From positions 374,358 to 438,357 of the forward strand of contig CAZAXH010000001.1 of NCBI GenBank assembly GCA_964489065.1: a stretch of 64,000 nucleotides of DNA. Direction: 5' to 3'. Positions 31,195 through 43,414 of this stretch are shown here, one piece after another (position 1 is the first letter of the stretch; every line of letters starts with the position of its first letter). The position numbers and the translations under genes were made by a program. This DNA is from an uncultured Planctomycetales bacterium (GTDB taxonomy: Bacteria; Omnitrophota; Gorgyraeia; Zapsychrales; JANLHA01). The notes beneath the pieces are model-generated. The model saw nothing but the letters and a program-made list of their open reading frames with translations. It had not been told where the DNA came from and ran no database searches.

Positions 31195-34100
31195 TCATGT
31201 GTCCGGGCAGGTTTTCCAAGAAGACGGGACTTCCAAACGATTCCGCCTTCGCTGCCGCCACCTCAGCCACAGAACAAACACCCCCCCTACAATCCAGGCT
31301 GAAGGCGCCGGGGTGTCAAAATCGTCTTCAAATTCCAGCCCCGCCGCGCTGGCCATTTTCTGCCGCTCCTTCATGCCCAACGTTTTCCATTGAGAACTGC
31401 GTTCAACCACGATATGGGACGTCGACGGGATCATGACCCCCCTGGCCTTGCTGTCCCGCACCAAAGCCGGGAGGGCCGACGACAGCCTAGCCGGATTTCT
31501 CATCATAAGGGCGTTGTTGACAAAAAGCCCCAGGGCCTCTGCGTAATCAGATTCGAAAGGAATGTTGAGAGATTGTAACGGCATAAATTTATCTTCCAAA
31601 GGAGCATAGACCTCATAAGCGGCATGCGGCGTTTGTCCCAAATTCGTGGCTAAGCGCCATTGCGGATCAGCAAAGACCGGAACCCAGGCAATATGCGGGC
31701 CATGCTTAACCACAATAATTTCCTTTGTGGCTGCCTCGTTAGCCGGGAAGCCGAGGGAGAAATTTTTTACCCCCGGATCCGGGCCCAAGACATAATACCG
31801 GGACTGCTCCGGAATCAAGCCCTGATAAAACGCCATTTCCTCCGGCCCTAAAAGATGGTCTTCCCGGTCTGTTATCACCACAAAAACAGGATACCATTGC
31901 CATGTGTTAGGAATCCCGGCCGTCAGCTTAGCCCGGTACATCAATAAAATGTGCTTCATGGCCCGGGTCAGGTCCAGACTTCCCCGGCGGGGGAGCCGGG
32001 CCTGTTGAATGACCTGCCGGATCAACGCTGTATCGCCCGGGATAATATAATCCGGGCTTAAAAGTTCAACTTCCAAATTAGCCGCGCTGACCTGAATCAA
32101 GTCCGCTCCGGGGAAAACAGCCCCCGCCTTAAGGATTCTCTCCAGGGCGGTGTCCGCGGTCAGCGTTGAACCGGCAGAGAAATCGAGGATAAAATGCAAA
32201 TAAGGTTTCCGCTGGAAAAACAAAGGGGAATAGGCGGGGTGGGTGAGAAGCATAGCATAATCCCCTCCGGGGCCGCTGCCTGTCAAGGCCATCGGCAGCC
32301 TGCCATTATGCACGGGTTCGTCCTGCAAAAAAATCGGGTACTGGCCGATCTTGATAACCGGGACCATCCCCCGGGGATAAGTCAACTCCAGCTCGGCAAG
32401 ACGGACTTCGTTGTGCCGAAAAGGAAAAATACTCATCTCTATGCGGGTCGGCGACGTATATACAAGCAGCCCCGGGTCGCGGCGCGTCCAGTCCCGAATC
32501 ATATGATAGACCCAGGTGGCGGTTTCCCTTTCGAACAACCGGCCCGGCACCATTTCCTTGTCCACCTGCAGGCGGAAACCCGTGATCAAGACCCCGGCGG
32601 GGATCTCGCATTCCTGAAAAAATTCGGCCGCATCATCCTCGCTGGTGTTTCTCATGGACAACTGCAATCTGGTTACAGTCGTAAATTCTTTCTCTTCACT
32701 GGTCCTCTTGAATGAAGACAATATCACCTCCCGGTTGCGCTGTATCTGACGGCGTTGTCCCCCGCCCCGGGAAGACCGGACACGGCCCCACCGGCCGGAG
32801 AACGAGGCGGACGCAGGCAACTCCGGCACAGATTCCCCCGTAAAAAGCCTGAACATATATTCAATCTTGTCGTCCGGCAAAACCATGCCGTTAAAAACCA
32901 CCTGATTATAAAAAGCGGAAATATACGGCAGCCGGGCACCGGCTTTCATCTTCTTCATTTTGATTAAAATTTCTTTTACCGTACGAACAGATCCTTTAAA
33001 ACGTTGTGGCCGTTCATAATCAGCGCAATACACATAATCCAATGCCCGCTGGATAGCACCCCGGTCCCTCCCCGCCTCCAGGATCAAATACCCCGGCAAT
33101 ATCAGGCAGGCAAGCAACACCAGGGTTGCCGCTTGTGTCCGCCCTGCCTGAAGCGACCATAACCGGACATCGTCCACAAGGATCTTCGTGTGAATTAAAA
33201 ATAGCATTAACGGAATCAGAAAAAGGAAACCCAGACCCATCGCGCAAATCGCCAAGAGGGATAAAGGCAAAAAGGGGAGAAAAACAAGAAAAAAATAAAC
33301 CGTAAAAGGATAGGTCGCGGCCCGGGAGAACACCAGCCAGCCCCGGCGCCGCATCCTCACAAGAGACGGGACAAGCAACACAAGCCCATTAAGGACCGCC
33401 AGGACATAAATTCCCCGAGCCTGGAAATCCGCCGGGAACGGGACATGATAATTCAGGAGCAACCCAGCCAAAGGGCCGACGACCGCCACCAGGGCGATCA
33501 CGGTGTTGTGGATCCACGGGTCTTTTTTTTGATACCAGCCGTAAAATAAAACGCTCAGCCGGATCAGGGCGATGAGTGTGACTAGCGTGATCCCGACGAA
33601 AAAAATAATCCCCACAACCGGCGGGAACCAGCCCCATGTCCACCGGACGCACGTCGACAATCCCAGCATGGCCGTGTACCATAAGGCTGGCGCAGCCACC
33701 GCGACCAGCAGACTGCGCCCGATATCCGCCCCCCGGTTCAGCCGGGTTTCGAAACACGCCAGCCGCATCGCCGCATAAAACAAACCCGGCATCATAAACG
33801 TATATTGCCACAGGATCACCTGCCCTTGATCCAAGGCCCAAGATTCTACCGCACCAGGTATAATATATGTGATCTCCGCTGTCGCAAACCACAAATAAGC
33901 GATATGAGACAAAAGAAAAACCCAATTCCATACCCAGGGGACCTCAAGGTATCCGCTCCGTTTCCAAGAAAAAAGCAGAGCTCCGCATAACACGATCAAC
34001 AATATTTCACTGCCCCCCAGCATCGCTGCCGCCGCCAGATTTTGAGGGAGGACTTCTTCCCGGATGATCCAAAAGGAAAAACAATTCAGCACAAACAATA

Positions 34101-34197
34101 TGCTCTGGGGAAGGATAAAAACCCAAAAGAGCATCATGATTTTCTTAAAAGGGCCTGGTAAAACAGATTCCCGGGCGTCATTGTTCATAAAAACCAA
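31195..34197 (-). CDS. Large (1000 aa) polytopic membrane protein with big extracytoplasmic C-terminal domain and PEP-CTERM-like C-terminal tail (MSEP-CTERM-like family candidate)
   Basis: The N-terminal ~400 aa contain >10 predicted TM helices, followed by a ~550-aa soluble region. The extreme C-terminus DTPAPSAWIVGGVFVLWLRWRQRRRNRL has a short Pro-containing motif, a TM helix and an Arg cluster, the architecture of exosortase sorting signals. Confidence 0.5.
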   Translation of the reverse strand: MVFMNNDARESVLPGPFKKIMMLFWVFILPQSILFVLNCFSFWIIREEVLPQNLAAAAMLGGSEILLIVLCGALLFSWKRSGYLEVPWVWNWVFLLSHIAYLWFATAEITYIIPGAVESWALDQGQVILWQYTFMMPGLFYAAMRLACFETRLNRGADIGRSLLVAVAAPALWYTAMLGLSTCVRWTWGWFPPVVGIIFFVGITLVTLIALIRLSVLFYGWYQKKDPWIHNTVIALVAVVGPLAGLLLNYHVPFPADFQARGIYVLAVLNGLVLLVPSLVRMRRRGWLVFSRAATYPFTVYFFLVFLPFLPLSLLAICAMGLGFLFLIPLMLFLIHTKILVDDVRLWSLQAGRTQAATLVLLACLILPGYLILEAGRDRGAIQRALDYVYCADYERPQRFKGSVRTVKEILIKMKKMKAGARLPYISAFYNQVVFNGMVLPDDKIEYMFRLFTGESVPELPASASFSGRWGRVRSSRGGGQRRQIQRNREVILSSFKRTSEEKEFTTVTRLQLSMRNTSEDDAAEFFQECEIPAGVLITGFRLQVDKEMVPGRLFERETATWVYHMIRDWTRRDPGLLVYTSPTRIEMSIFPFRHNEVRLAELELTYPRGMVPVIKIGQYPIFLQDEPVHNGRLPMALTGSGPGGDYAMLLTHPAYSPLFFQRKPYLHFILDFSAGSTLTADTALERILKAGAVFPGADLIQVSAANLEVELLSPDYIIPGDTALIRQVIQQARLPRRGSLDLTRAMKHILLMYRAKLTAGIPNTWQWYPVFVVITDREDHLLGPEEMAFYQGLIPEQSRYYVLGPDPGVKNFSLGFPANEAATKEIIVVKHGPHIAWVPVFADPQWRLATNLGQTPHAAYEVYAPLEDKFMPLQSLNIPFESDYAEALGLFVNNALMMRNPARLSSALPALVRDSKARGVMIPSTSHIVVERSSQWKTLGMKERQKMASAAGLEFEDDFDTPAPSAWIVGGVFVLWLRWRQRRRNRLEVPSSWKTCPDT

Positions 34198-34621
34198 ACC
34201 TTTCCGTCACTAAATGACTCAAAATAAGGACACCTAAAAAAACAGCGATTCCAACCGCCATGTGGATCACCGGCTGAAAATAAGCCGGGAAAAGCGCCCG
34301 GCTCAGACACGCAACATGGTAGGCACACGTCATCCGGGCGGCGTTGGCAAAAATGGTCGTCAGATAAACCATGGGGATCACCCAAAAGGCCGCTTTCCAG
34401 GCCCGGCGCCGGGGACCGCCCCGGGCAATAACCATCAGCGTATAAAAACCCAGCAACGCAAAAAACCCAAACCCGCTACAACCCTGCGTCACATGAATCG
34501 GGCAGGGTTCCAGGAGAATCCATACTTCCCCACCCTGATCCGGCGTAATCCCGGCGCCATGAAACACGGCGGTCAGCCAAGCCGACGGGTAAGCGAATAA
34601 ATTGTAAATCAAATGTATCAA
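34178..34621 (-). CDS. Small polytopic membrane protein with conserved-looking Cys-Ser-Gly and Arg residues (exosortase-like candidate, very tentative)
   Basis: 147 aa, ~4 TM helices; motif VTQGCSGFGFF in a TM helix plus downstream Arg residues (ANAARM, LSRAL); overlaps the start of the 1000-aa gene by 20 nt and lies 15 nt downstream of PrsW. Confidence 0.35.
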   Translation of the reverse strand: MIHLIYNLFAYPSAWLTAVFHGAGITPDQGGEVWILLEPCPIHVTQGCSGFGFFALLGFYTLMVIARGGPRRRAWKAAFWVIPMVYLTTIFANAARMTCAYHVACLSRALFPAYFQPVIHMAVGIAVFLGVLILSHLVTERFGFYEQ

Positions 34622-34636
34622 ACAGCCGTCCTCTCT

Positions 34637-35326
34637 TTAAATTCCGGACCCCGGCCCGATCATTTTCATCTTTTTTTTGAGTTCCAGGTAATACCACAAA
34701 ACAAGCGGGATCGTAAACAGCGCGAAAACAGACCCTAATATCGGAGATAAAAAAAGAAGAAAATCATAACATCCGTGGATCAAAACAGCTTCCCATAATC
34801 CTTGATTCATACATTTTTTTTCTTCCTCAAGGCGGGTTAAAGTCCTAGCACGCTTGGCCCGCCCAATATAATATCCCATGACGCCCGAACACACGGCATG
34901 CATAGGCACCGCCGTAAACCCCCGGGCCAGAGCCATACTCCAGGAATGATTGACCACATAAAGGATGTTCTCCATACAGGCAAAGCCCATGCTCGCCACG
35001 ACAGTGAAAACAATGCCGTCCCGTTCCCCCCGAAAAAAATCAGCGCTATAAATATATTTTTTAATAATCCTTAATTTAATATATTCCTCGCACAATCCGG
35101 CGACGATAAAAGCTTCAAAAAAATAATACAGGATAAAAGACCAGGGCGGAAAAATATTATACTGGGCCAAAATCACTTCCAAAATATAAACTGGAAGTGT
35201 GTAAATAATTCCCAAAAGAAACACTTTGATTATAGACCTTTTCGGCGCAGGGTGGGCTTTATAGAAATACCGCACCAGCAGTAAAGCCGGCAGCACCGCC
35301 GACACGAAAGAAAAAAGTGTATGCAT
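34637..35326 (-). CDS. PrsW-family intramembrane metalloprotease
   Basis: 229 aa polytopic; diagnostic motifs CEEYIKL (EExxK), GFACMENILY (FxxxEN) and HGCYDF (HxxxD). Confidence 0.7.
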   Translation of the reverse strand: MHTLFSFVSAVLPALLLVRYFYKAHPAPKRSIIKVFLLGIIYTLPVYILEVILAQYNIFPPWSFILYYFFEAFIVAGLCEEYIKLRIIKKYIYSADFFRGERDGIVFTVVASMGFACMENILYVVNHSWSMALARGFTAVPMHAVCSGVMGYYIGRAKRARTLTRLEEEKKCMNQGLWEAVLIHGCYDFLLFLSPILGSVFALFTIPLVLWYYLELKKKMKMIGPGSGI

Positions 35327-35424
35327 AGCGATCTGGCCTTTAAAAGATGGGGCCCCAAAAGGGAGCCCGAAGGTTCTCGTCTCCCGATATCCATATCATC
35401 CGTTTGTCTCCCGCCTGCTCCCTT

Positions 35425-36237
35425 TCAGGAGAAGAGACCCGAGGTCCAAAGCTCCAAGATAACGACCCCTGCCCCCACGCTGACCGCGGCCCAGGCGTGC
35501 CGCCAACGGACGTCCAGCCGAGGGTAAGCGCCCCTAAATAAACACCGGCTCAGCTCACCCGACAACCAGCCCCCCACGAGAGCCATCCCCAGAATCCCCG
35601 CCATAAAGATACAGTAACGCATCAGGCGCGAAAAATCATAAATGCTATTATAAACAACAATCCCTGCCAGATACGGGAACACTCCGCCGAGCAGGACTCC
35701 GGCTCGTCTTAGATGAGTCATGTCCGGAGAAAGTCCCGTCAAAGGGAGGGAACGCATAAACGCCCAACCTCCCGCGGCCAGACAATATATTCCCGCCGCA
35801 AAAAGTCCTTCCGCCGGGCAGCCCAGCGCAATCATCCGGCCCGGATCACCGAACCCTTTTAAAATGGAACTGCCCAAGACAAGATACAAGCCATTTCCAA
35901 CCAAGGAGGCAACCCCCGCCATCGCCAGCGGCAGCGCATAAGGACTCCGGCTTGTTTTCAAGGACGCCAAAAAGGCTGCGCCCCCCAGTATCCCCAGAAA
36001 GATACCCGCAACGGAAATTGCAAAATGCGGCGCCGTAACCGGAATATTGTATATCACCACCGACCTCGTAAACGGCTGCAATTGAATTTTCGTCACCTCT
36101 CCTCCGCACCCCAGGATAACCAGAACATGACCCGCTTCGTGCAAAGCGATCGCCGCGACGCATCCAAATGCCAAGGACCCGGCTAAATGCAACGCGAGTT
36201 TTAGACATTCCCGGAACTTATGCCGCACTCTCTTCAT
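35425..36237 (-). CDS. Polytopic membrane protein with HExxH (HEAGH) motif in a TM helix - putative site-2-protease-like (M50-like) metalloprotease
   Basis: Likely start MKRVRHKF (ATG ~36237); the track ORF 35425..36447 extends upstream through a low-complexity Arg/Gly-rich stretch and is probably over-called; HEAGH sits within the first TM helix. Confidence 0.5.
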   Translation of the reverse strand: MKRVRHKFRECLKLALHLAGSLAFGCVAAIALHEAGHVLVILGCGGEVTKIQLQPFTRSVVIYNIPVTAPHFAISVAGIFLGILGGAAFLASLKTSRSPYALPLAMAGVASLVGNGLYLVLGSSILKGFGDPGRMIALGCPAEGLFAAGIYCLAAGGWAFMRSLPLTGLSPDMTHLRRAGVLLGGVFPYLAGIVVYNSIYDFSRLMRYCIFMAGILGMALVGGWLSGELSRCLFRGAYPRLDVRWRHAWAAVSVGAGVVILELWTSGLFS

Positions 36238-36317
36238 TTCACCTTTGCCCCGAAGCCTTTGTGGGTACGGGCTCATCCGCACACTAAAAAAACCAGGCGG
36301 CCGCCTGTTGAAAAACA

Positions 36318-36527
36318 TTATGCCTCTTTGCGGATAAGCAACGTGTAGCTGACCAACCCTCCGGCTACCAAAACCGCCCCGGCAATAAAAGGCAAACTGG
36401 CGGCAGCGGTCAAAACCACCTGAGTGCCGGCGATAAACGGCACACACAACATCATACCGTAAGCGCCTGCCGCGACAGAAACCAAAGCAGCCGCTTTACA
36501 TAAACTTCGAATGGCTTCCGGTGTCAT
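36318..36527 (-). CDS. Small (69 aa) two-TM hydrophobic protein
   Basis: MTPEAIRSLCKAAALVSVAAGAYGMMLCVPFIAGTQVVLTAAASLPFIAGAVLVAGGLVSYTLLIRKEA; strong AGGAGGG RBS 6 nt upstream of the ATG; the track ORF (36318..36566) starts 13 codons further up. Confidence 0.45.
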   Translation of the reverse strand: MTPEAIRSLCKAAALVSVAAGAYGMMLCVPFIAGTQVVLTAAASLPFIAGAVLVAGGLVSYTLLIRKEA

Positions 36528-36605
36528 AGGTGACCCTCCTTTCTTTATATTTTTTCCCTTTAACACGATCCCGGCCTTCCGGGGCCATGGGCCTCCCCGG
36601 CGATC

Positions 36606-37994
36606 CTAGCTGAATTCGGCCTCACACCATTTCCGATAACCGCTCTTCAAAAACATATAGACACCCAGCCAGCAAACCAGGCTCACCCCTAAATTGGTTA
36701 CGCCGTAAAAATGTCCGCTGACCATAAATAACACCTGGGCGAGGGCGCACAAAAGGCTTCCGTGAATGATGACAAACCACGGCCGCGCAGAATAGCAACT
36801 CATAAAGACAACCCAGGATAACGTCAACAACGCGAAACTTCCCGTCAGTAAAAGGTACCCCCAAAAACGCGGCAGGACCAGTTCCGCCGGTTTAAAAACC
36901 AAATGCGGAATCAAGATCAGGTACAAAACAAAAAGGGACCAATAAAGGCCTAATCCCCCCAACAAAACCAGCCCCTGCTCCTGAAGGAAATCCTCCTTGC
37001 GCACAGGCTTCAAGATATCGTAACCCCAGGTAGTCATATTACGGTGATTCGCACACAGCACCAGCAAGACCGGGGCGACAGTATATAGCAGAAAATTATT
37101 ATACGGGTCATCAAAAAGGCCATGACCCCAAGAGAAACGGCTGATAGCGGCCATATAGGCCGGAGTTAAAACCAATAACGCCATCCACACACTCTTTAAT
37201 TCAGCGAAATCGATCCGGTGCCAATGAAGCGCCCGGCGCCATAGCGCGGCCCGCCGGGGGTATGGGGGAAGAGCCGGAACCACAGACCGAAGCCCCAAAC
37301 GTTTCCGGAGAGTGCGCACGCCGCGGGTATACAGCTCGCCCGCCTTAATCTGATTATGCAAAAATTCTTTCTGCGGCCAGGACATCATATACCCGTACTC
37401 AAAGGATTCCTCTTGGAGAGACATCGTCCTGCTGGCCAAAATCAACATCAAAGCGGCGCTCGCCAAGCCTAAGACAGGTTGCCAAACAATGTTTTCCGTC
37501 AAGAAAACAACAAGATTATACGCCTGCCAGGAAAGCACCAGCAGGAAAAAATAGGATAGATAAACAAGCATATTAATTGACAAATACCCCACCCAAATAA
37601 CCAAAGAAATCACCAAAGCGCACAAGACAAAAACTGACCAGACCGCGGCCGCTTTCACGATAATAATGGGGTACAGACTAACCAGCCAATACCCAAAAAC
37701 AATGACAAAAAATGCGAAGAACGTAAAAGGGACGATAATATGTGCGGCACGGTAATGGGGGAGCAACGAAGCCCTGTGCTGGGCCATCTGCCTTTTTAAA
37801 AGAACGCCGGCGGTGAAGGCCAGCCACACGCTCACAACGACAAAAAACGTAAAAAAGTCATCCGCAATGGCCACGAGTCTATGCTCCAGGGAAAACCTGG
37901 AAAGCACCGCGGTCCCTAATAAACTCAACGCCAAAATCCGATAAGGCAAATACCGGACGTAAAGAAGAACGACCTGATAATAACGGTTTTTCAT
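36606..37994 (-). CDS. Polytopic membrane protein, putative ABC-2-type permease partner of the upstream ATPase
   Basis: 462 aa, ~10-12 TM helices, start overlaps the ABC ATPase stop by 4 nt (ATGA); no recognisable motif beyond topology. Confidence 0.5.
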   Translation of the reverse strand: MKNRYYQVVLLYVRYLPYRILALSLLGTAVLSRFSLEHRLVAIADDFFTFFVVVSVWLAFTAGVLLKRQMAQHRASLLPHYRAAHIIVPFTFFAFFVIVFGYWLVSLYPIIIVKAAAVWSVFVLCALVISLVIWVGYLSINMLVYLSYFFLLVLSWQAYNLVVFLTENIVWQPVLGLASAALMLILASRTMSLQEESFEYGYMMSWPQKEFLHNQIKAGELYTRGVRTLRKRLGLRSVVPALPPYPRRAALWRRALHWHRIDFAELKSVWMALLVLTPAYMAAISRFSWGHGLFDDPYNNFLLYTVAPVLLVLCANHRNMTTWGYDILKPVRKEDFLQEQGLVLLGGLGLYWSLFVLYLILIPHLVFKPAELVLPRFWGYLLLTGSFALLTLSWVVFMSCYSARPWFVIIHGSLLCALAQVLFMVSGHFYGVTNLGVSLVCWLGVYMFLKSGYRKWCEAEFS

Positions 37995-38870
37995 GCGTGC
38001 AGCTCCAGAAATATCTCTTCCAGGTTTAAATCCTCCACTTCAATTTTGGCGTTAAGACGCCGCTCCATCTGGGATTTCATCCCGGCATTAAACCCCCGCA
38101 CAGACAAAACCGCCTCATATTGAGACAACTCGCAGTGCAGGACCCCGTCCAGCGGGATATCCCGGGACAAAGGAACAGAAGAAACAATCCTCAACCGTTT
38201 CACTTCATCTTTCAGGACATCCAGTTCTCCGCAGAAATCGATAGCCCCGTTTTTAAGCAAGGCCACCCGGTCTGCCACGCGTTCCAAATCGGTCGTAATA
38301 TGCGTGGAAAAAAATATCGTGCATTCGCGGTCCGCGACAATGTTTAAAATCGTTTTCAAAAATTTCCGCCGGGCCGCCGGGTCCAGGCTCGCCACCGGCT
38401 CGTCAAAAACCAGCAATTCAGGCTCATGCCCCAAGGCGAGGATAATCGCGAGTTTCTGCGCCTGCCCCTCGGAAAGCAGGCCGACTTTTTCCTCCTCGTC
38501 CAGTTCCCAGTCCTGAAGCAGCTTACCGACCAGCGGCATCTTCCACCGGGGATAAAAAGACGCCGTATACGCGACAAGTTGCCGGACGGTGAGCCAGGGA
38601 TACGGCCGGTCAGATTGCGGGACATATCCTATGCGCTCTTTGGTGCTTTCCAGAAAATTTCCCGGGTTGTCCCCCAGCACCGATATCCGCCCCTCCTGGG
38701 GATACATGAGGCCTAATACGCATTTTATAAGCGTCGTTTTCCCGGCCCCGTTCTTCCCTAAAAGGCCTAAGACCGATCCCCTGGGAACCGCTAAAGACAA
38801 ATCGTCAAGAACCGGTTTACTCTTATACCGTTTCGTGACATGCTGGATTTGGATCACGGGATCATTCATG
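37991..38870 (-). CDS. ABC transporter ATP-binding protein (ABC-2 / YtrB-like)
   Basis: Walker A GKNGAGKTT, signature LSEGQAQKLAIILA, Walker B LLVFDEPVASLD; likely start MNDPVIQIQHV, and the track ORF extends 18 codons upstream to 38923 into the GntR gene. Confidence 0.85.
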
Positions 38871-39266
38871 AGCACTCTCCTTCCATAAACGTTCAAGCAT
38901 CGCCGTAACAGTTTCCGGGTCAACAGATAACTGGCAGGCCTGTATTATGACCTGCTTTAAAATCGGGACCAGGGCCTCTTCTCGTTCTTTCATGTCTTTT
39001 TTGGAAATACGGCCTTCTTTAACCCGCATCCCCTGGCCCCGGACATATTCAAGGACCCCCTCCTTCTCAAGCCAGGAATACGCCTTGGAAACTGTCATCG
39101 GATTAATCTCAAGTTCCTGAGCCACCTGCCGCACGGAAGGCAGAAAATCTCCGGGGATGATCCGTTGGGAAGCCGATAAAGTCTTGACCTGATCAATAAT
39201 CTGCCGGTAAATCGGCACCCCGGATGTTGCCGCGATATGGAAATAAAACCTGGCTTTTTCGGTCAT
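38862..39266 (-). CDS. GntR-family transcriptional regulator (YtrA subfamily, short)
   Basis: 134 aa; winged-HTH GDFLPSVRQVAQELEINPMTVSKAYSWLEKEGVLEYVRGQG; short C-terminal helical region typical of YtrA-like regulators that sit in front of ABC-2 cassettes. Confidence 0.8.
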   Translation of the reverse strand: MTEKARFYFHIAATSGVPIYRQIIDQVKTLSASQRIIPGDFLPSVRQVAQELEINPMTVSKAYSWLEKEGVLEYVRGQGMRVKEGRISKKDMKEREEALVPILKQVIIQACQLSVDPETVTAMLERLWKESAHE

Positions 39267-39592: not shown

Positions 39593-42500
39593 TTACAAAC
39601 AAATACCGCTCCAGTTCCCGCAGCTTGTGCAGGACTCTGTCCCGGGAATAATAAAATATTTCAGACAGGAGCGAGTCTGCCCAGGCGTACAGTCACTATA
39701 AGGAAGCTCACAGTTTCCGTCGAACGCTCCGGTGACATCGTTACAGTACACGACCCCGGACGTACAGCCGGACGTGGTCGTACAGGTTTTTGTCGATCCG
39801 CTGATACAAACACAGGTCTCGTAAAGGCCGCTGGAAGTATTACAAGTCTGTGTCCCCAAGACACCGTCAATATAACAATACACCACGCCGGGCAAACATC
39901 GGCAATCCTCATAATCATCCCCGCAGGAAACGCACTCCTCCACGCCCGGGTTCCCATCGCCCAAAGTACAGTCCCGGGTGCTGCCGGGCGCGCAGGTCGG
40001 GTTGCTCTGTTCACACGCCGTCCACCCTCCGCCGGAACAGGTCCCAATCCCCGGACAAGAAGACGATGTCGTGCAGCTTTGGGTTTCCTGCGGGTCACAC
40101 CAGCACAGACCCCAGCCCGTCCCGCAGGCATTACATGTTTTCTTGGAAATAAAGCCGTCGGCATTAGGCTCGCAATTCACAACTTCGCCCGGCGTACAGA
40201 CCGGATTGGCCTGCTGACAGGAACTCCAGGTTCCGCCCACGCACAGGCGATGATACGGGCAGCCTCCGACCGGAGGGCATTCCAATGTTTCTCCCGAAGA
40301 ACACGTCGTACACGAGGTGTTATACGAACACGTTTTCTGCACCGGGCAAGCGCTGTTGACAGGGGTGGTCACAATCAACCTCTTGTCATAAGTACAGGTC
40401 AACCCGTCATACGTTGCCCCGCAGCCCAAATCCTCGGTTGTGCCGGTTGTGTACCCGCAGCAAATTTCCGCATAATTCACTTGATTCACCTTGACGACCG
40501 GGCAGCTTTTCCCACCGCCGGGCTCTTTCACAGTGACGTAGTGAGTTGCCGGGACATTTAAAGGCGACCCATACCCGCAATAATAATTCGTCGTATACTC
40601 ACAGCACGTGTCGTGGTAAGGATAGGGATTCCGGGACCTGACCGGACATTCGGTCAGGACCGGTTCTTTAATTTCGACTCGAGTCGTTTCCGGATATCCT
40701 AAAGGTGCGTATCCGCACACCACCGTATAAGTCGCTGGGTAGCCGCAACAAGTGTTATCATTATGAATCTGGCTGATCACTTTAATCGGACAGTCCGCAT
40801 GAACAATCCCCGGCTCCTGCCAAGTCACGTAGTCCGTGACCGGGAACATCACCCCGTCCCCGCACCCCTGCTGCAGAGCCCCGTATTGACAGCACGTTTC
40901 ATCATAAGCCGGGACTCCGACAATCTGAACTTCGCAGGTGGGGTTCGTGGGCGACTCCAGATAAGACACCAAATACGTAACAGGATACCCCAAAGCCCCG
41001 CATTCCGTCGTAGGGGACGCCGGATAATCGCAACAGCTCTGGTGGTTTGTCTGTTCGGTCACTATCGGGTCACACCCGGTGGACGACGTCTGCGTCGTGA
41101 TCCAGGAACTCGTCGGGTACGTCACGCCGTCGCCGCATGCCGAAGTCGCGGCCCCATAAGCACAACATGTGTATTCATAAGGAACCACATTCTGAAACAG
41201 TGGATCACAGCCGGGTAACGCGTTCCCCGGCTCATTGACCTGCAATTGGGTATGATCCGGGTACCAGCCCGAGTACCCGCATTGGGACGCCTGAAACCCG
41301 CCGTAATTACAGCAGAATGGATCATTGGCGATTTCGTTCTGTACCACCGTCGGGCATTCCGCGAAATTCTGCGTCGGAGTCTGGACCTCGACCGAGGTTG
41401 TCTCGGGGCGGCCGTCATACCCGCAGAGTCGCGTGAATCCCCCATATCCGCAGCATCCGTCAGCCGTCGGACGGTCAACAATAACGTCACAGCTGGGGTT
41501 ATTCGGCGTCAATGTCTCAAACAGCGTTGTCACCGGATAGGTCACGCCGTCCCCGCAATGGGCACTGGTCACCTCGTAATCGCAGCAATAATCACACATT
41601 TCTTCCGTGCTCCCGTAGATGTCCGGGCAATTCGAATTACCCGGTTTCTTAGCGCCATAAATACATGTGGTTTCGGGATAAACAACGCCATCCCATGTGC
41701 CGCCGCACTGCACGCTCGGATCCGGATAATTGCAGCACACATCCTCATACGGACCGCACACATCCCCGAATATCGGGCTGCAGAGAGGATTGGTCGGTTC
41801 CCGGAAATCAACAAGATAAGTATCATCATAATATCCTGGATACCCGCATTGATCATACTGCCACGGGCCGTACCCGCAGCACGCCTCATTAAAAGGATCT
41901 TCCGTAATTTCCGTCGGACACGCCGGGTTGCAGCTCGGGGTAGAGGAAACAACCATACTGGAAGTCGGATAGGTCACGCCATCACCGCAGGCTGACGAGG
42001 AAGTGTAACAGCAGCAGCTGTCGGCGTTTTCAACATGATTCCGGTACTCGGTCGGGCACGCCGCATCGACCAACCCCGGGACATTATATTCGATCCAGTC
42101 CGTATCCGGATAAGACCCATACCCGCAACTGCCGATGAACCCGCTGTAGTAACAACAGTATTTGGTCGGGTCATCCTCAATATCGACTTGCTGGACAATC
42201 TTGTGGTCGCAATTCGAGTTCGCCGGGGTCCTGAACTGAAGAAAAGTAGTGGGCGGGAAGACGACCATTTCTCCGTTGACTTTTAAAGTCGCCCCGCAGC
42301 TCGGCGGAACTTCAATGTCTCCGTAATCACAGCAGTCATCCGCATTGGGCGTAATCGTGATATCCGCGGCGCAGTTGGTATTTCCCGCGCTGCGGTAGGT
42401 GATCAGGGTAGAATCCGGATAGACCACACCCTCGACTTCACCGCCGCAGGAACTGCTCTGCGGACCGTAATCACAGCAGTTCGCTTTTGAAACAGGGTCA

Positions 42501-43414
42501 TCCGCCGGATAAATCGTGCCAAACTCCGGCTCGCACGCCGGATTAGCCGGGATATTGACTTCCAGCCACTGGGTGTCAGGATAAAGGATGTCATAACCGC
42601 ACTGCCAGACCAAACCCGCATAATCACAGCAAGATTTAAGCTCCGCGCACTGGAAACGCTCCGGACAATCCTCGACGCCTGTCGCGGAACGCTGAATCTG
42701 CTGCATAGCGGTCGGATCGCACTCGCCTCCGCCGCAAAGATAATCCTCCCACGGGCCATAATTACAGCAGGCGTCGTAAGCGGTGACGCATTCGACCAGG
42801 TCCAGGCAGCCTTCTTCCGGGGCTGTCTTTGTCCTCATAATTTCGTTCGGTTCACAGGGCGACACGCCGCAGCCCATAATAACCCAATCCGTATAGGTGC
42901 AGGCCCCGCAGTCGACCGGGCAATTCGCCAAATCTTCATAAGGAGGATTGCATTCTCCATCCCCGCAGCAGCTAACCACTTCAAGGGACGTCCGCAACTC
43001 ATAAATATGGGACGCCTGAATCGCGGCATCCGCCGGGATATCCGTTTCCAGCACCACGTCTTCCGGAAGAGGCCGGGCCGGGGGCAGGTCGTAAATGTCC
43101 TTCAGCGTTTGGCGCAGTTCCTCAATATGCTGAGCCCGGATAGGGGTAACCTTGGAAATGAGGTTCGGGTTTTCCCAAACAGGAGCGGACATGCCGCACA
43201 GCATGCGTTTGTTATAAATAGCTCTCCTCAACTCCCGGATATGAATCGGTTTTACAGGCCGTTGCAAAGTCACCAGATCATCGTCTGTCCACGTCTGGGC
43301 CGACGCCTGTTGCAACCCCAACAGGCACACCGCCACGGCCACCATCGCGGTCACCGCAAAAAAACATCCCCCTCTTCCGCAGAAAAACCCGTCGTTCCTT
43401 GCCATATCCCCCAT
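39593..43414 (-). CDS. Giant secreted cysteine-rich tandem-repeat protein (1273 aa), novel, no recognisable family
   Basis: Signal peptide (…AVTAMVAVAVCLLGLQQASAQT); N-terminal region with three IxxxHIxELRxxL repeats. About 17 tandem ~45-50-aa modules follow, each starting CC-x-Y-G/S/P and containing four Cys (e.g. CCDYGPQSSSCGGEVEGVVYPDSTLITYRSAGNTNC, CCGYGGFTRLCGYDGRPETTSVEVQTPTQNFAEC). The C-terminal ~230 aa form a Cys/Thr/Gly-rich stalk with two duplicated C-x-G-x-C...NP-x-C-x-PG modules. There is no C-terminal anchor. A strong single frame is maintained across 3.8 kb of repetitive DNA. Confidence 0.8.
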   Translation of the reverse strand: MGDMARNDGFFCGRGGCFFAVTAMVAVAVCLLGLQQASAQTWTDDDLVTLQRPVKPIHIRELRRAIYNKRMLCGMSAPVWENPNLISKVTPIRAQHIEELRQTLKDIYDLPPARPLPEDVVLETDIPADAAIQASHIYELRTSLEVVSCCGDGECNPPYEDLANCPVDCGACTYTDWVIMGCGVSPCEPNEIMRTKTAPEEGCLDLVECVTAYDACCNYGPWEDYLCGGGECDPTAMQQIQRSATGVEDCPERFQCAELKSCCDYAGLVWQCGYDILYPDTQWLEVNIPANPACEPEFGTIYPADDPVSKANCCDYGPQSSSCGGEVEGVVYPDSTLITYRSAGNTNCAADITITPNADDCCDYGDIEVPPSCGATLKVNGEMVVFPPTTFLQFRTPANSNCDHKIVQQVDIEDDPTKYCCYYSGFIGSCGYGSYPDTDWIEYNVPGLVDAACPTEYRNHVENADSCCCYTSSSACGDGVTYPTSSMVVSSTPSCNPACPTEITEDPFNEACCGYGPWQYDQCGYPGYYDDTYLVDFREPTNPLCSPIFGDVCGPYEDVCCNYPDPSVQCGGTWDGVVYPETTCIYGAKKPGNSNCPDIYGSTEEMCDYCCDYEVTSAHCGDGVTYPVTTLFETLTPNNPSCDVIVDRPTADGCCGYGGFTRLCGYDGRPETTSVEVQTPTQNFAECPTVVQNEIANDPFCCNYGGFQASQCGYSGWYPDHTQLQVNEPGNALPGCDPLFQNVVPYEYTCCAYGAATSACGDGVTYPTSSWITTQTSSTGCDPIVTEQTNHQSCCDYPASPTTECGALGYPVTYLVSYLESPTNPTCEVQIVGVPAYDETCCQYGALQQGCGDGVMFPVTDYVTWQEPGIVHADCPIKVISQIHNDNTCCGYPATYTVVCGYAPLGYPETTRVEIKEPVLTECPVRSRNPYPYHDTCCEYTTNYYCGYGSPLNVPATHYVTVKEPGGGKSCPVVKVNQVNYAEICCGYTTGTTEDLGCGATYDGLTCTYDKRLIVTTPVNSACPVQKTCSYNTSCTTCSSGETLECPPVGGCPYHRLCVGGTWSSCQQANPVCTPGEVVNCEPNADGFISKKTCNACGTGWGLCWCDPQETQSCTTSSSCPGIGTCSGGGWTACEQSNPTCAPGSTRDCTLGDGNPGVEECVSCGDDYEDCRCLPGVVYCYIDGVLGTQTCNTSSGLYETCVCISGSTKTCTTTSGCTSGVVYCNDVTGAFDGNCELPYSDCTPGQTRSCLKYFIIPGTESCTSCGNWSGICL

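Follow-up and report, generated by a model that had tools for sequence, protein, structure and literature searches.

The subject of this study is a candidate protein-sorting locus in a 64,000-nucleotide (nt) stretch of DNA, called the window below, from an uncultured bacterium labelled Planctomycetales and placed by GTDB in the Omnitrophota (GenBank assembly GCA_964489065.1, contig CAZAXH010000001.1, positions 374,358 to 438,357 of the forward strand). ORF reading of the window gives three co-directional open reading frames (ORFs) here, all on the minus strand: 31195-34197, 34178-34621 and 34637-35326. These ORFs had been reported at the same positions in a first-pass annotation, made from the sequence alone, which proposed an exosortase-type sorting module consisting of a large membrane protein with a C-terminal sorting signal, a small membrane protein and a PrsW protease. 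The features of the locus are as follows (lengths in amino acids [aa]; TM, transmembrane):

31195..34188, minus strand: MSEP-CTERM family protein of 997 aa (coordinates include the stop codon), predicted to be the only substrate of the neighbouring exosortase (TIGR04286)
33028..34137, minus strand: N-terminal polytopic domain of this protein, residues 18-387, 11 predicted TM helices (AlphaFold2, Lys/Arg count)
31351..32727, minus strand: predicted periplasmic VIT and vWA-like module with helical C-terminal region, residues 488-946 (Pfam, Foldseek)
31234..31317, minus strand: C-terminal tripartite sorting signal, residues 958-985 (direct sequence reading)
34178..34621, minus strand: exosortase K-like protein, predicted intramembrane cysteine protease/transpeptidase, 147 aa, 4 TM helices, N-terminally shortened (TIGR04178, XrtK, gene neighbourhood)
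34478..34480, 34334..34336 and 34262..34264, minus strand: codons of the catalytic candidates Cys48, Arg96 and His120, respectively (invariant residues)
34637..35326, minus strand: PrsW-family glutamic-type intramembrane protease, 229 aa (PF13367)

The longest form of the large ORF encodes 1000 aa from a TTG codon. A start at the ATG at 34188, which gives a 997-aa product, is more likely, as this codon is preceded by GGAAAGG and a public gene call (P0006) has 997 aa and is 100% identical. The small ORF encodes 147 aa from a TTG codon preceded by GAGAGGA; the identical 147-aa product is also found in public gene calls, and the ORF cannot be longer because the stop codon of the PrsW gene lies in frame 15 nt upstream. 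The small and large genes overlap by 11 nt (ATG start) or 20 nt (TTG start), making translational coupling of the two plausible. All three genes are under purifying selection, with ratios of nonsynonymous to synonymous substitution rates (dN/dS) of 0.08-0.26. Their shared orientation is uninformative, since the long ORFs of the window are nearly all on the minus strand. The GC skew stays below zero along the whole window (-0.07 to -0.22) and, together with the strand bias, is consistent with a single replichore with strong gene-strand bias.

The large protein belongs to a family that is already defined. It matches the NCBIfam model TIGR04286 ("MSEP-CTERM sorting domain-containing protein") with 366.4 bits (E = 3e-109; cutoff 150) over residues 21-983 and profile positions 7-915 of 920, and public proteins that are at least 90% identical carry this name at NCBI. 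The first-pass annotation had already pointed to such a family, correctly in this respect. The search returned 107 homologs, mostly of 930-1030 aa, and the dN/dS of the large gene is 0.16-0.18.

An AlphaFold2 model of the large protein (predicted local distance difference test [pLDDT] 82.3, predicted template modelling score [pTM] 0.80) contains 11 helices at residues 18-387 (H18-45 through H350-387), followed by a beta-sandwich at 488-620, an alpha/beta domain extending to approximately 870, helices at 881-946 and a last helix at 964-984. The multi-TM character first ascribed to the N-terminal half is thus present, but it extends over approximately 39% of the protein and not over half of it. 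Lys and Arg residues number 18 in the loops predicted to be cytoplasmic, compared with 3 in the short loops on the periplasmic side; from this count the N-terminus is predicted to be inside, the soluble module in the periplasm and the C-terminal Arg cluster inside. A Pfam search of the polytopic domain gave no match; an invariant YFF.VFLP.LP motif is visible in this domain in the homolog alignment.

In the soluble part, Pfam VIT (PF08487) scores 25 bits, just below its cutoff of 26.5, and a VIT domain is precomputed as present in most homologs. The best Foldseek matches of the modelled soluble half are two structures of inter-alpha-inhibitor heavy chain ITIH1, 6fpy and 6fpz (E = 2e-11, approximately 593 columns), followed by vWA domains. 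These matches indicate that the predicted periplasmic module resembles an inter-alpha-inhibitor heavy chain (VIT plus vWA). Just before the VIT domain, residues 461-481 (32746-32808, minus strand) form a disordered, very Arg/Gly-rich stretch, SGRWGRVRSSRGGGQRRQIQRNRE, with a pLDDT below 50; such a strongly basic stretch in the predicted periplasmic part is unusual for an exported segment.

The C-terminus of the large protein has the tripartite layout of a sorting signal. The tail DTPAPSAWIVGGVFVLWLRWRQRRRNRL can be read directly as residues 958-985 of the 997-aa form; the tail quoted in the first-pass annotation is real, yet 12 further residues, EVPSSWKTCPDT, follow it. Its parts are a D-TPAPS motif, a short hydrophobic helix, AWIVGGVFVLWL, and the Arg cluster RWRQRRRNR, and the AlphaFold2 model has a helix at 964-984. 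Pro962 is invariant in the homolog alignment (A1). Conservation of the tail extends to most of the family: in 87 of the 99 full-length homologs, xP[A/E]P or xSEP stands directly before a hydrophobic stretch and a basic cluster. The commonest forms among the 99 are SPAP (17 homologs), SPEP (12), TPEP (11), APAP (11), MSEP (10) and TPAP (9). Judging by these counts, TPAPS is a mainstream variant of the family and not an aberrant one, contrary to its earlier reading as a deviation from MSEP; the name "MSEP" reflects the Bacteroidota sequences that were used for naming. All 254 ORFs of at least 60 aa in the window were scanned for P[AEST]P or [ST]EP followed by a hydrophobic stretch and then Lys or Arg, and no such tail was found besides that of the large protein. 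A single tail of this kind in the window fits a dedicated one-to-one system in the sense of 10.1101/2023.06.07.544157.

The 147-aa protein matches the exosortase/archaeosortase signature TIGR04178 with 34.2 bits (residues 43-138; cutoff 23). With the TIGR04286 match of its neighbour, this bears out the proposal of a dedicated sorting module of exosortase type. Its best specific match is to exosortase K (XrtK, TIGR04287), at profile positions 63-157 of 163. The first-pass annotation had instead named exosortase N (XrtN) as the enzyme known to accompany MSEP-CTERM proteins, and the pairing of the genes in other genomes bears on this point.

A pattern scan in which each species was represented by one genome found the large protein to have relatives in 266 genomes; the locus comparisons use the best 80, which belong to at least five phyla and include Omnitrophota, Planctomycetota, Verrucomicrobiota, Lentisphaerota, Kiritimatiellae, Gammaproteobacteria and Bacteroidota. 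When every ORF of the 80 loci was searched iteratively, 76 loci proved to have a homolog of the small protein, almost always directly upstream of the large gene and overlapping it, so that the comparison of ortholog neighbourhoods agrees with the pairing seen in the window. When all neighbouring ORFs of the 80 loci were clustered, no third family was found to be conserved throughout. Matches to XrtK were obtained for 33 of 34 partner proteins. Two Bacteroidota partners that were scored individually reach 115-133 bits on the XrtK model, above its cutoff, and such proteins are named "exosortase K" by NCBI; this confirms the pairing of XrtK with MSEP-CTERM. The eight non-Bacteroidota partners scored in the same way (from Omnitrophota, Verrucomicrobiota, Kiritimatiellae and Gammaproteobacteria-type loci) reach 29-44 bits, all under the cutoff.

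On these profile matches, the cognate enzyme of MSEP-CTERM proteins is XrtK and not XrtN. A system of the XrtN type would account for the VIT domain of the large protein, for its match to the XrtN-target model TIGR04477 and for the weak XrtN matches of 5 of the 34 partners. The TIGR04477 match, however, is 38.3 bits against a cutoff of 250, the 147-aa protein has no match to the XrtN model TIGR04476 at E <= 1 (cutoff 200), and that model has 406 positions, far more than the 147 residues of the protein. The XrtN assignment was ruled out on these grounds, and we give it next to no credence.

Five residues of the small protein are invariant in the 34 partner sequences: Cys48, Asn93, Arg96, His120 and Gly124. 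A second alignment adds Gly50 as invariant, so the Cys-Ser-Gly motif (residues 48-50) noticed in the first-pass annotation is really a C-x-G motif. The AlphaFold2 model (pLDDT 85.9, pTM 0.80) consists of a helix at 2-21, a three-stranded sheet at 24-44, Cys48, and helices at 51-67, 71-110 and 113-141. In this model, Cys48 lies just before helix 51-67 and outside any helix, and not inside one as had been described. If the strongly basic loop RGGPRRRAWK is assigned to the cytoplasm, both termini of the protein are predicted to be inside and Cys48, Asn93, Arg96 and His120 to lie at the periplasmic face. Cys48, Arg96 and His120, along with the invariant Asn93, are candidates for the catalytic residues: a Cys/Arg/His triad has been proposed for the exosortase/archaeosortase family (10.1101/2023.06.07.544157) and is supported by mutagenesis of the homologous archaeosortase ArtA (reviewed in PMC6098224). 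A comparison of the exosortase model with the PDB gave no relative, either by sequence or by fold.

The small size of this protein had been taken as an anomaly. An exhaustive profile search yielded 1925 representative clusters of the small-exosortase type, typically of 170-185 aa, and the XrtK model itself has 163 positions; small size is, by this measure, the norm for this exosortase type. Alignments of the partner proteins with the canonical enzymes are confined to the C-terminal part of the latter (positions 166-259 of 261 in XrtA and 115-233 of 241 in EpsH), suggesting that XrtK-type enzymes are little more than a catalytic core. Even so, among the 150 best-scoring family representatives, which typically have 170-185 aa, nearly all are longer than this 147-aa enzyme.

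We conclude, with a probability of approximately 0.85, that the locus encodes an XrtK / MSEP-CTERM exosortase system of a Candidatus Omnitrophota bacterium, in which one enzyme is dedicated to one substrate. Several observations weigh against this conclusion. The 147-aa protein scores 32.3 bits on TIGR04287, below the cutoff of 55 for strict XrtK membership, which is why public records call it a "hypothetical protein". The enzymes of the window and of its three relatives among the 80 loci (L001-L003) are missing the first TM helix of other members, and the 147-aa protein accordingly differs from the full-length XrtK architecture of about 165-185 aa with that helix. When the isolated tail was compared with the generic CTERM models at E <= 10, no PEP-CTERM match was obtained, and the sole match was a sub-threshold one to MYXO-CTERM (12.7-15.7 bits). 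A literature search found no paper mentioning MSEP-CTERM and no relevant one mentioning XrtK or exosortase K. In addition, the whole large protein gave no PEP-CTERM match in the NCBIfam search.

Some of these observations would also be expected if the C-terminal helix were an uncleaved second anchor and the 147-aa protein a decaying fragment or a non-catalytic membrane protein. Compared with the family norm, the protein is shortened at its N-terminus, and its score is under the XrtK cutoff; the literature search gave no experimental evidence of cleavage in the XrtK / MSEP-CTERM family. However, its length of 147-148 aa and its reading frame are kept in six loci (products of equal 147-aa length are encoded by loci L081-L083), with a dN/dS of 0.21-0.26. 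Every family-invariant residue is retained, the fold is confidently predicted, and the adjacency of enzyme and substrate is found across phyla. The conserved length, the dN/dS and the invariant residues rule out a pseudogene or fragment, an outcome that the first-pass annotation had named as a possible refutation, and the uncleaved-anchor explanation as a whole is very improbable.

The XrtK / MSEP-CTERM system is already catalogued in NCBIfam, and the variants seen at this locus are minor: an enzyme without helix 1, and PrsW and M50B-like neighbours. The following mechanism is built on observed sequence features, predicted topology and gene pairing. The 997-aa substrate would insert in the inner membrane via its 11 N-terminal helices, with the N-terminus in the cytoplasm, and its VIT plus vWA module would fold in the periplasm. 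The C-terminal helix and the cytoplasmic Arg cluster would hold TPAPS at the outer face of the membrane, and in the models Cys48, Arg96 and His120 of the enzyme (plus Asn93) would be level with TPAPS where it abuts the last helix of the substrate. Cys48 could then attack the substrate backbone in or beside TPAPS, removing the helix and the Arg cluster, and the new C-terminus would be either freed by hydrolysis or transferred to an acceptor such as a lipid or glycan. For these reaction steps, we infer the cleavage, its site and the acceptor from the homologous archaeosortase ArtA and, by analogy, from sortases. Such a cut would leave the protein in the membrane through its retained N-terminal domain, so that it probably serves the maturation or re-anchoring of the C-terminal end of the periplasmic module, and not secretion. 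As this module resembles an inter-alpha-inhibitor heavy chain, a glycan might conceivably be the acceptor of the new C-terminus, in parallel with the heavy-chain transfer of eukaryotes.

The third ORF encodes a protein of the PrsW family. This 229-aa protein scores 108.7 bits on Pfam PF13367 (cutoff 23.5) and 121 bits on NCBIfam NF033739, which is under the equivalog cutoff of 225; it is therefore a member of the PrsW family but not an equivalog of Bacillus PrsW. The motifs EEYIK, FACMEN and HGCYD are readable in its sequence, its cluster mates (at least 90% identity) are named "PrsW family glutamic-type intramembrane protease" by NCBI, and its dN/dS is 0.08-0.13. The PrsW and exosortase ORFs share a frame, with one TAA between them, in the window, L001 and L002. 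A read-through fusion of the two was considered and ruled out, as the genes of L003 overlap by 4 nt in different frames.

In the first-pass annotation, PrsW had been counted as part of the module. It adjoins the enzyme-substrate pair only in the window and L001-L003 (among the 80 genome loci) and in the metagenome loci L081 and L083. A metagenome scan for the clade with the short enzyme found three loci only, all of them close relatives; two of the three are activated-sludge assemblies, and both have the same gene order. The clade with PrsW and the M50B-like gene reaches down to approximately 50% identity of the large protein. The short exosortase of 147-148 aa without the first TM helix occurs in the same clade as the PrsW adjacency, and the SPOR/TPR protein, MiaA and HflX encoded downstream are conserved over the same clade range. 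PrsW and the M50B-like peptidase are most likely lineage-specific neighbours and not a conserved part of the system.

A functional link of PrsW to the sorting pair is nevertheless possible. The PrsW gene is only 15 nt upstream of the xrtK-like gene (with the 4-nt overlap in L003), a possible terminator precedes it, and related glutamic proteases process tripartite signals. On this basis, one could propose a three-component module in which PrsW is the functional partner of the shortened exosortase in the Omnitrophota clade: it might clear the helix in the manner of a signal peptide peptidase, make a second cut, or stand in for the lost helix of XrtK. PrsW is conserved with xrtK down to 49-52% partner protein identity, and the clade that gained PrsW is also the one in which XrtK lost its first helix. 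Glutamic intramembrane proteases of the related CPBP type are established or predicted sorting enzymes for other tripartite signals (10.1101/2023.06.07.544157; PMC11980579), and NCBIfam includes an "exosortase E/protease" family (TIGR04162). The hairpin at 35368-35350, upstream of PrsW, would make PrsW, xrtK and the target one transcription unit, but this is a weak pointer, since the terminator scan of the region showed no enrichment (24 found, compared with 17.5 +/- 4.7 in shuffled sequences). Against the proposal, the remaining 76 of the 80 loci lack PrsW, and its gain and the helix loss amount to a single evolutionary event (n = 1). The equal conservation of the SPOR/TPR protein, MiaA and HflX means that the adjacency of PrsW may be plain synteny; these housekeeping neighbours and the single event leave functional coupling of PrsW no more than a possibility. 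Myxosortase-type signals, moreover, have an invariant Cys in the motif, whereas TPAPS contains none. We regard a three-component module as unlikely.

An M50B-like peptidase with an HEAGH motif is encoded upstream of PrsW (35425-36447, minus strand); it scores 25.7 bits on Pfam PF13398, against a cutoff of 26. Its homologs in L001-L003 have only approximately 265-270 aa, so that its true start is probably the internal MKRVRH. An 82-aa, two-helix ORF (36318-36566, minus strand) overlaps the 5' extension (36240-36447, minus strand) of the longest M50B-like ORF, and the translations of short ORFs in L002, L003 and L083 match this extension. Of the terminator-like hairpins in the region, the best (35350-35368, minus strand) lies in the 98-nt gap between the M50B-like and PrsW genes and has seven pairs, six of them G-C, with a T-rich run after it. 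Three predicted intramembrane peptidases thus stand in a row, M50B-like (zinc), PrsW (glutamic) and exosortase (cysteine), and this row is conserved in L001-L003, L081 and L083 only. It is doubtful that the three form a functional unit in this clade, speculatively with the C-terminus of the substrate passed to a glycan. If they did, helix 1 of XrtK may have been lost when the PrsW and M50B-like genes came alongside, and PrsW might work with the minimal 4-TM exosortase by disposing of the helix once excised, by making a second cut or by stabilising the truncated enzyme.

Other genes are found beside the sorting pair in parts of the family. In the window, a GntR regulator, an ABC ATPase and a polytopic protein of approximately 460 aa are encoded at 36606-39266 (minus strand), and nine Omnitrophota-type loci (including L005, L006, L008, L011 and L013), some of them labelled Planctomycetales, have this trio immediately upstream of their xrtK-like gene. 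The approximately 460-aa protein has no Pfam match. As the trio is kept where all other synteny is lost, this hints at a functional link with the sorting pair in Omnitrophota. In Verrucomicrobiota/Lentisphaerota-type loci (L014, L021, L027, L031, L033, L041, L046, L062 and L064), one or two paralogous ORFs (approximately 370-420 and 500 aa) precede the exosortase gene on the same strand and are sometimes fused; none of the six such proteins tested has a Pfam match. It is possible that these paralogs constitute an accessory family of the XrtK system that has so far gone unrecognised. In the window, the GntR gene is closely preceded by a 1273-aa ORF (39593-43414, minus strand), for which Pfam gives no match at E <= 0.001.

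The locus adds little new biology, as the system is defined in NCBIfam and the large protein is already correctly named in public records. It does, however, expose an annotation gap: all eight of the non-Bacteroidota partners scored individually were missed by the curated XrtK model, and the enzyme is labelled "hypothetical protein" in the Omnitrophota records checked, though gene order and invariant residues identify it. The family name is also misleading, since "MSEP" fits a Bacteroidota minority and the motif of most members, [S/T/A]-P-[A/E]-P, is of the ordinary PEP-like kind. With 147 aa and 4 TM helices, the enzyme could serve as a minimal model for a protease family without a solved structure.

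Several known systems can be set beside this one. PrsW is known for cleaving the anti-sigma factor RsiW in Bacillus; the PrsW-family protein at this locus is below the NCBIfam equivalog cutoff (121 against 225). Myxosortases, which are CPBP glutamic intramembrane proteases related to the PrsW type, process other tripartite C-terminal signals (10.1101/2023.06.07.544157; PMC11980579). Their signals contain an invariant Cys, which TPAPS does not.

The modelled periplasmic half is similar to ITIH1 (PDB 6fpy) in its VIT, vWA and C-terminal helical architecture along its entire length, but with an identity of approximately 12%, and the eukaryotic proteins are secreted and have no membrane domains. 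In ITIH heavy chains, a C-terminal propeptide is removed and a glycosaminoglycan becomes ester-linked to the new C-terminus; the parallel with the substrate described here is one of analogy only.

Archaeosortase ArtA of Haloferax volcanii, which acts on PGF-CTERM proteins, is a homologous enzyme and the one member of the family for which there is experimental support; this covers C-terminal cleavage, the requirement for the conserved active-site residues and coupling to lipid attachment (PMC6098224; 10.1101/2023.06.07.544157). The ArtA / PGF-CTERM system differs from that of the window in being archaeal, in having many substrates and in its motif.

XrtA systems are reportedly linked to exopolysaccharide loci in work by Haft et al. 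from 2006 and 2012. In these one-to-many systems, an 8-TM enzyme serves many substrates in each genome, unlike in the present system with its one adjacent substrate and a 4-TM enzyme that corresponds to only the C-terminal catalytic half of XrtA/EpsH. The two share an enzyme superfamily and the logic of motif, helix and Arg cluster (PMC1569441). The P-[A/E]-P motif found here is closer to PEP than the name MSEP suggests, although the generic PEP-CTERM model gives no match on this tail. Exosortase N (TIGR04476) with its VIT-domain target (TIGR04477) also combines a dedicated exosortase with a VIT target, and weak cross-matches to it occur. It differs in that its target model fails on the large protein (38 against 250 bits) and that the XrtN model, with 406 positions, is far larger.

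The closest relative is the XrtK (TIGR04287) / MSEP-CTERM (TIGR04286) system in the form defined from Bacteroidota genomes. The differences lie in the motif (TPAPS here, the common form outside Bacteroidota, compared with MSEP), in the score of the enzyme, which is below the curated cutoff as for all eight non-Bacteroidota partners scored, in the missing first TM helix (147 aa compared with approximately 175), and in the insertion of PrsW and M50B-like genes upstream. Shared by both are a two-gene unit with equal order and overlapping genes; a target of approximately 1000 aa with a polytopic N-terminus, a VIT-containing part predicted to be periplasmic and a tripartite tail; and a very small enzyme with invariant Cys, Asn, Arg and His residues.

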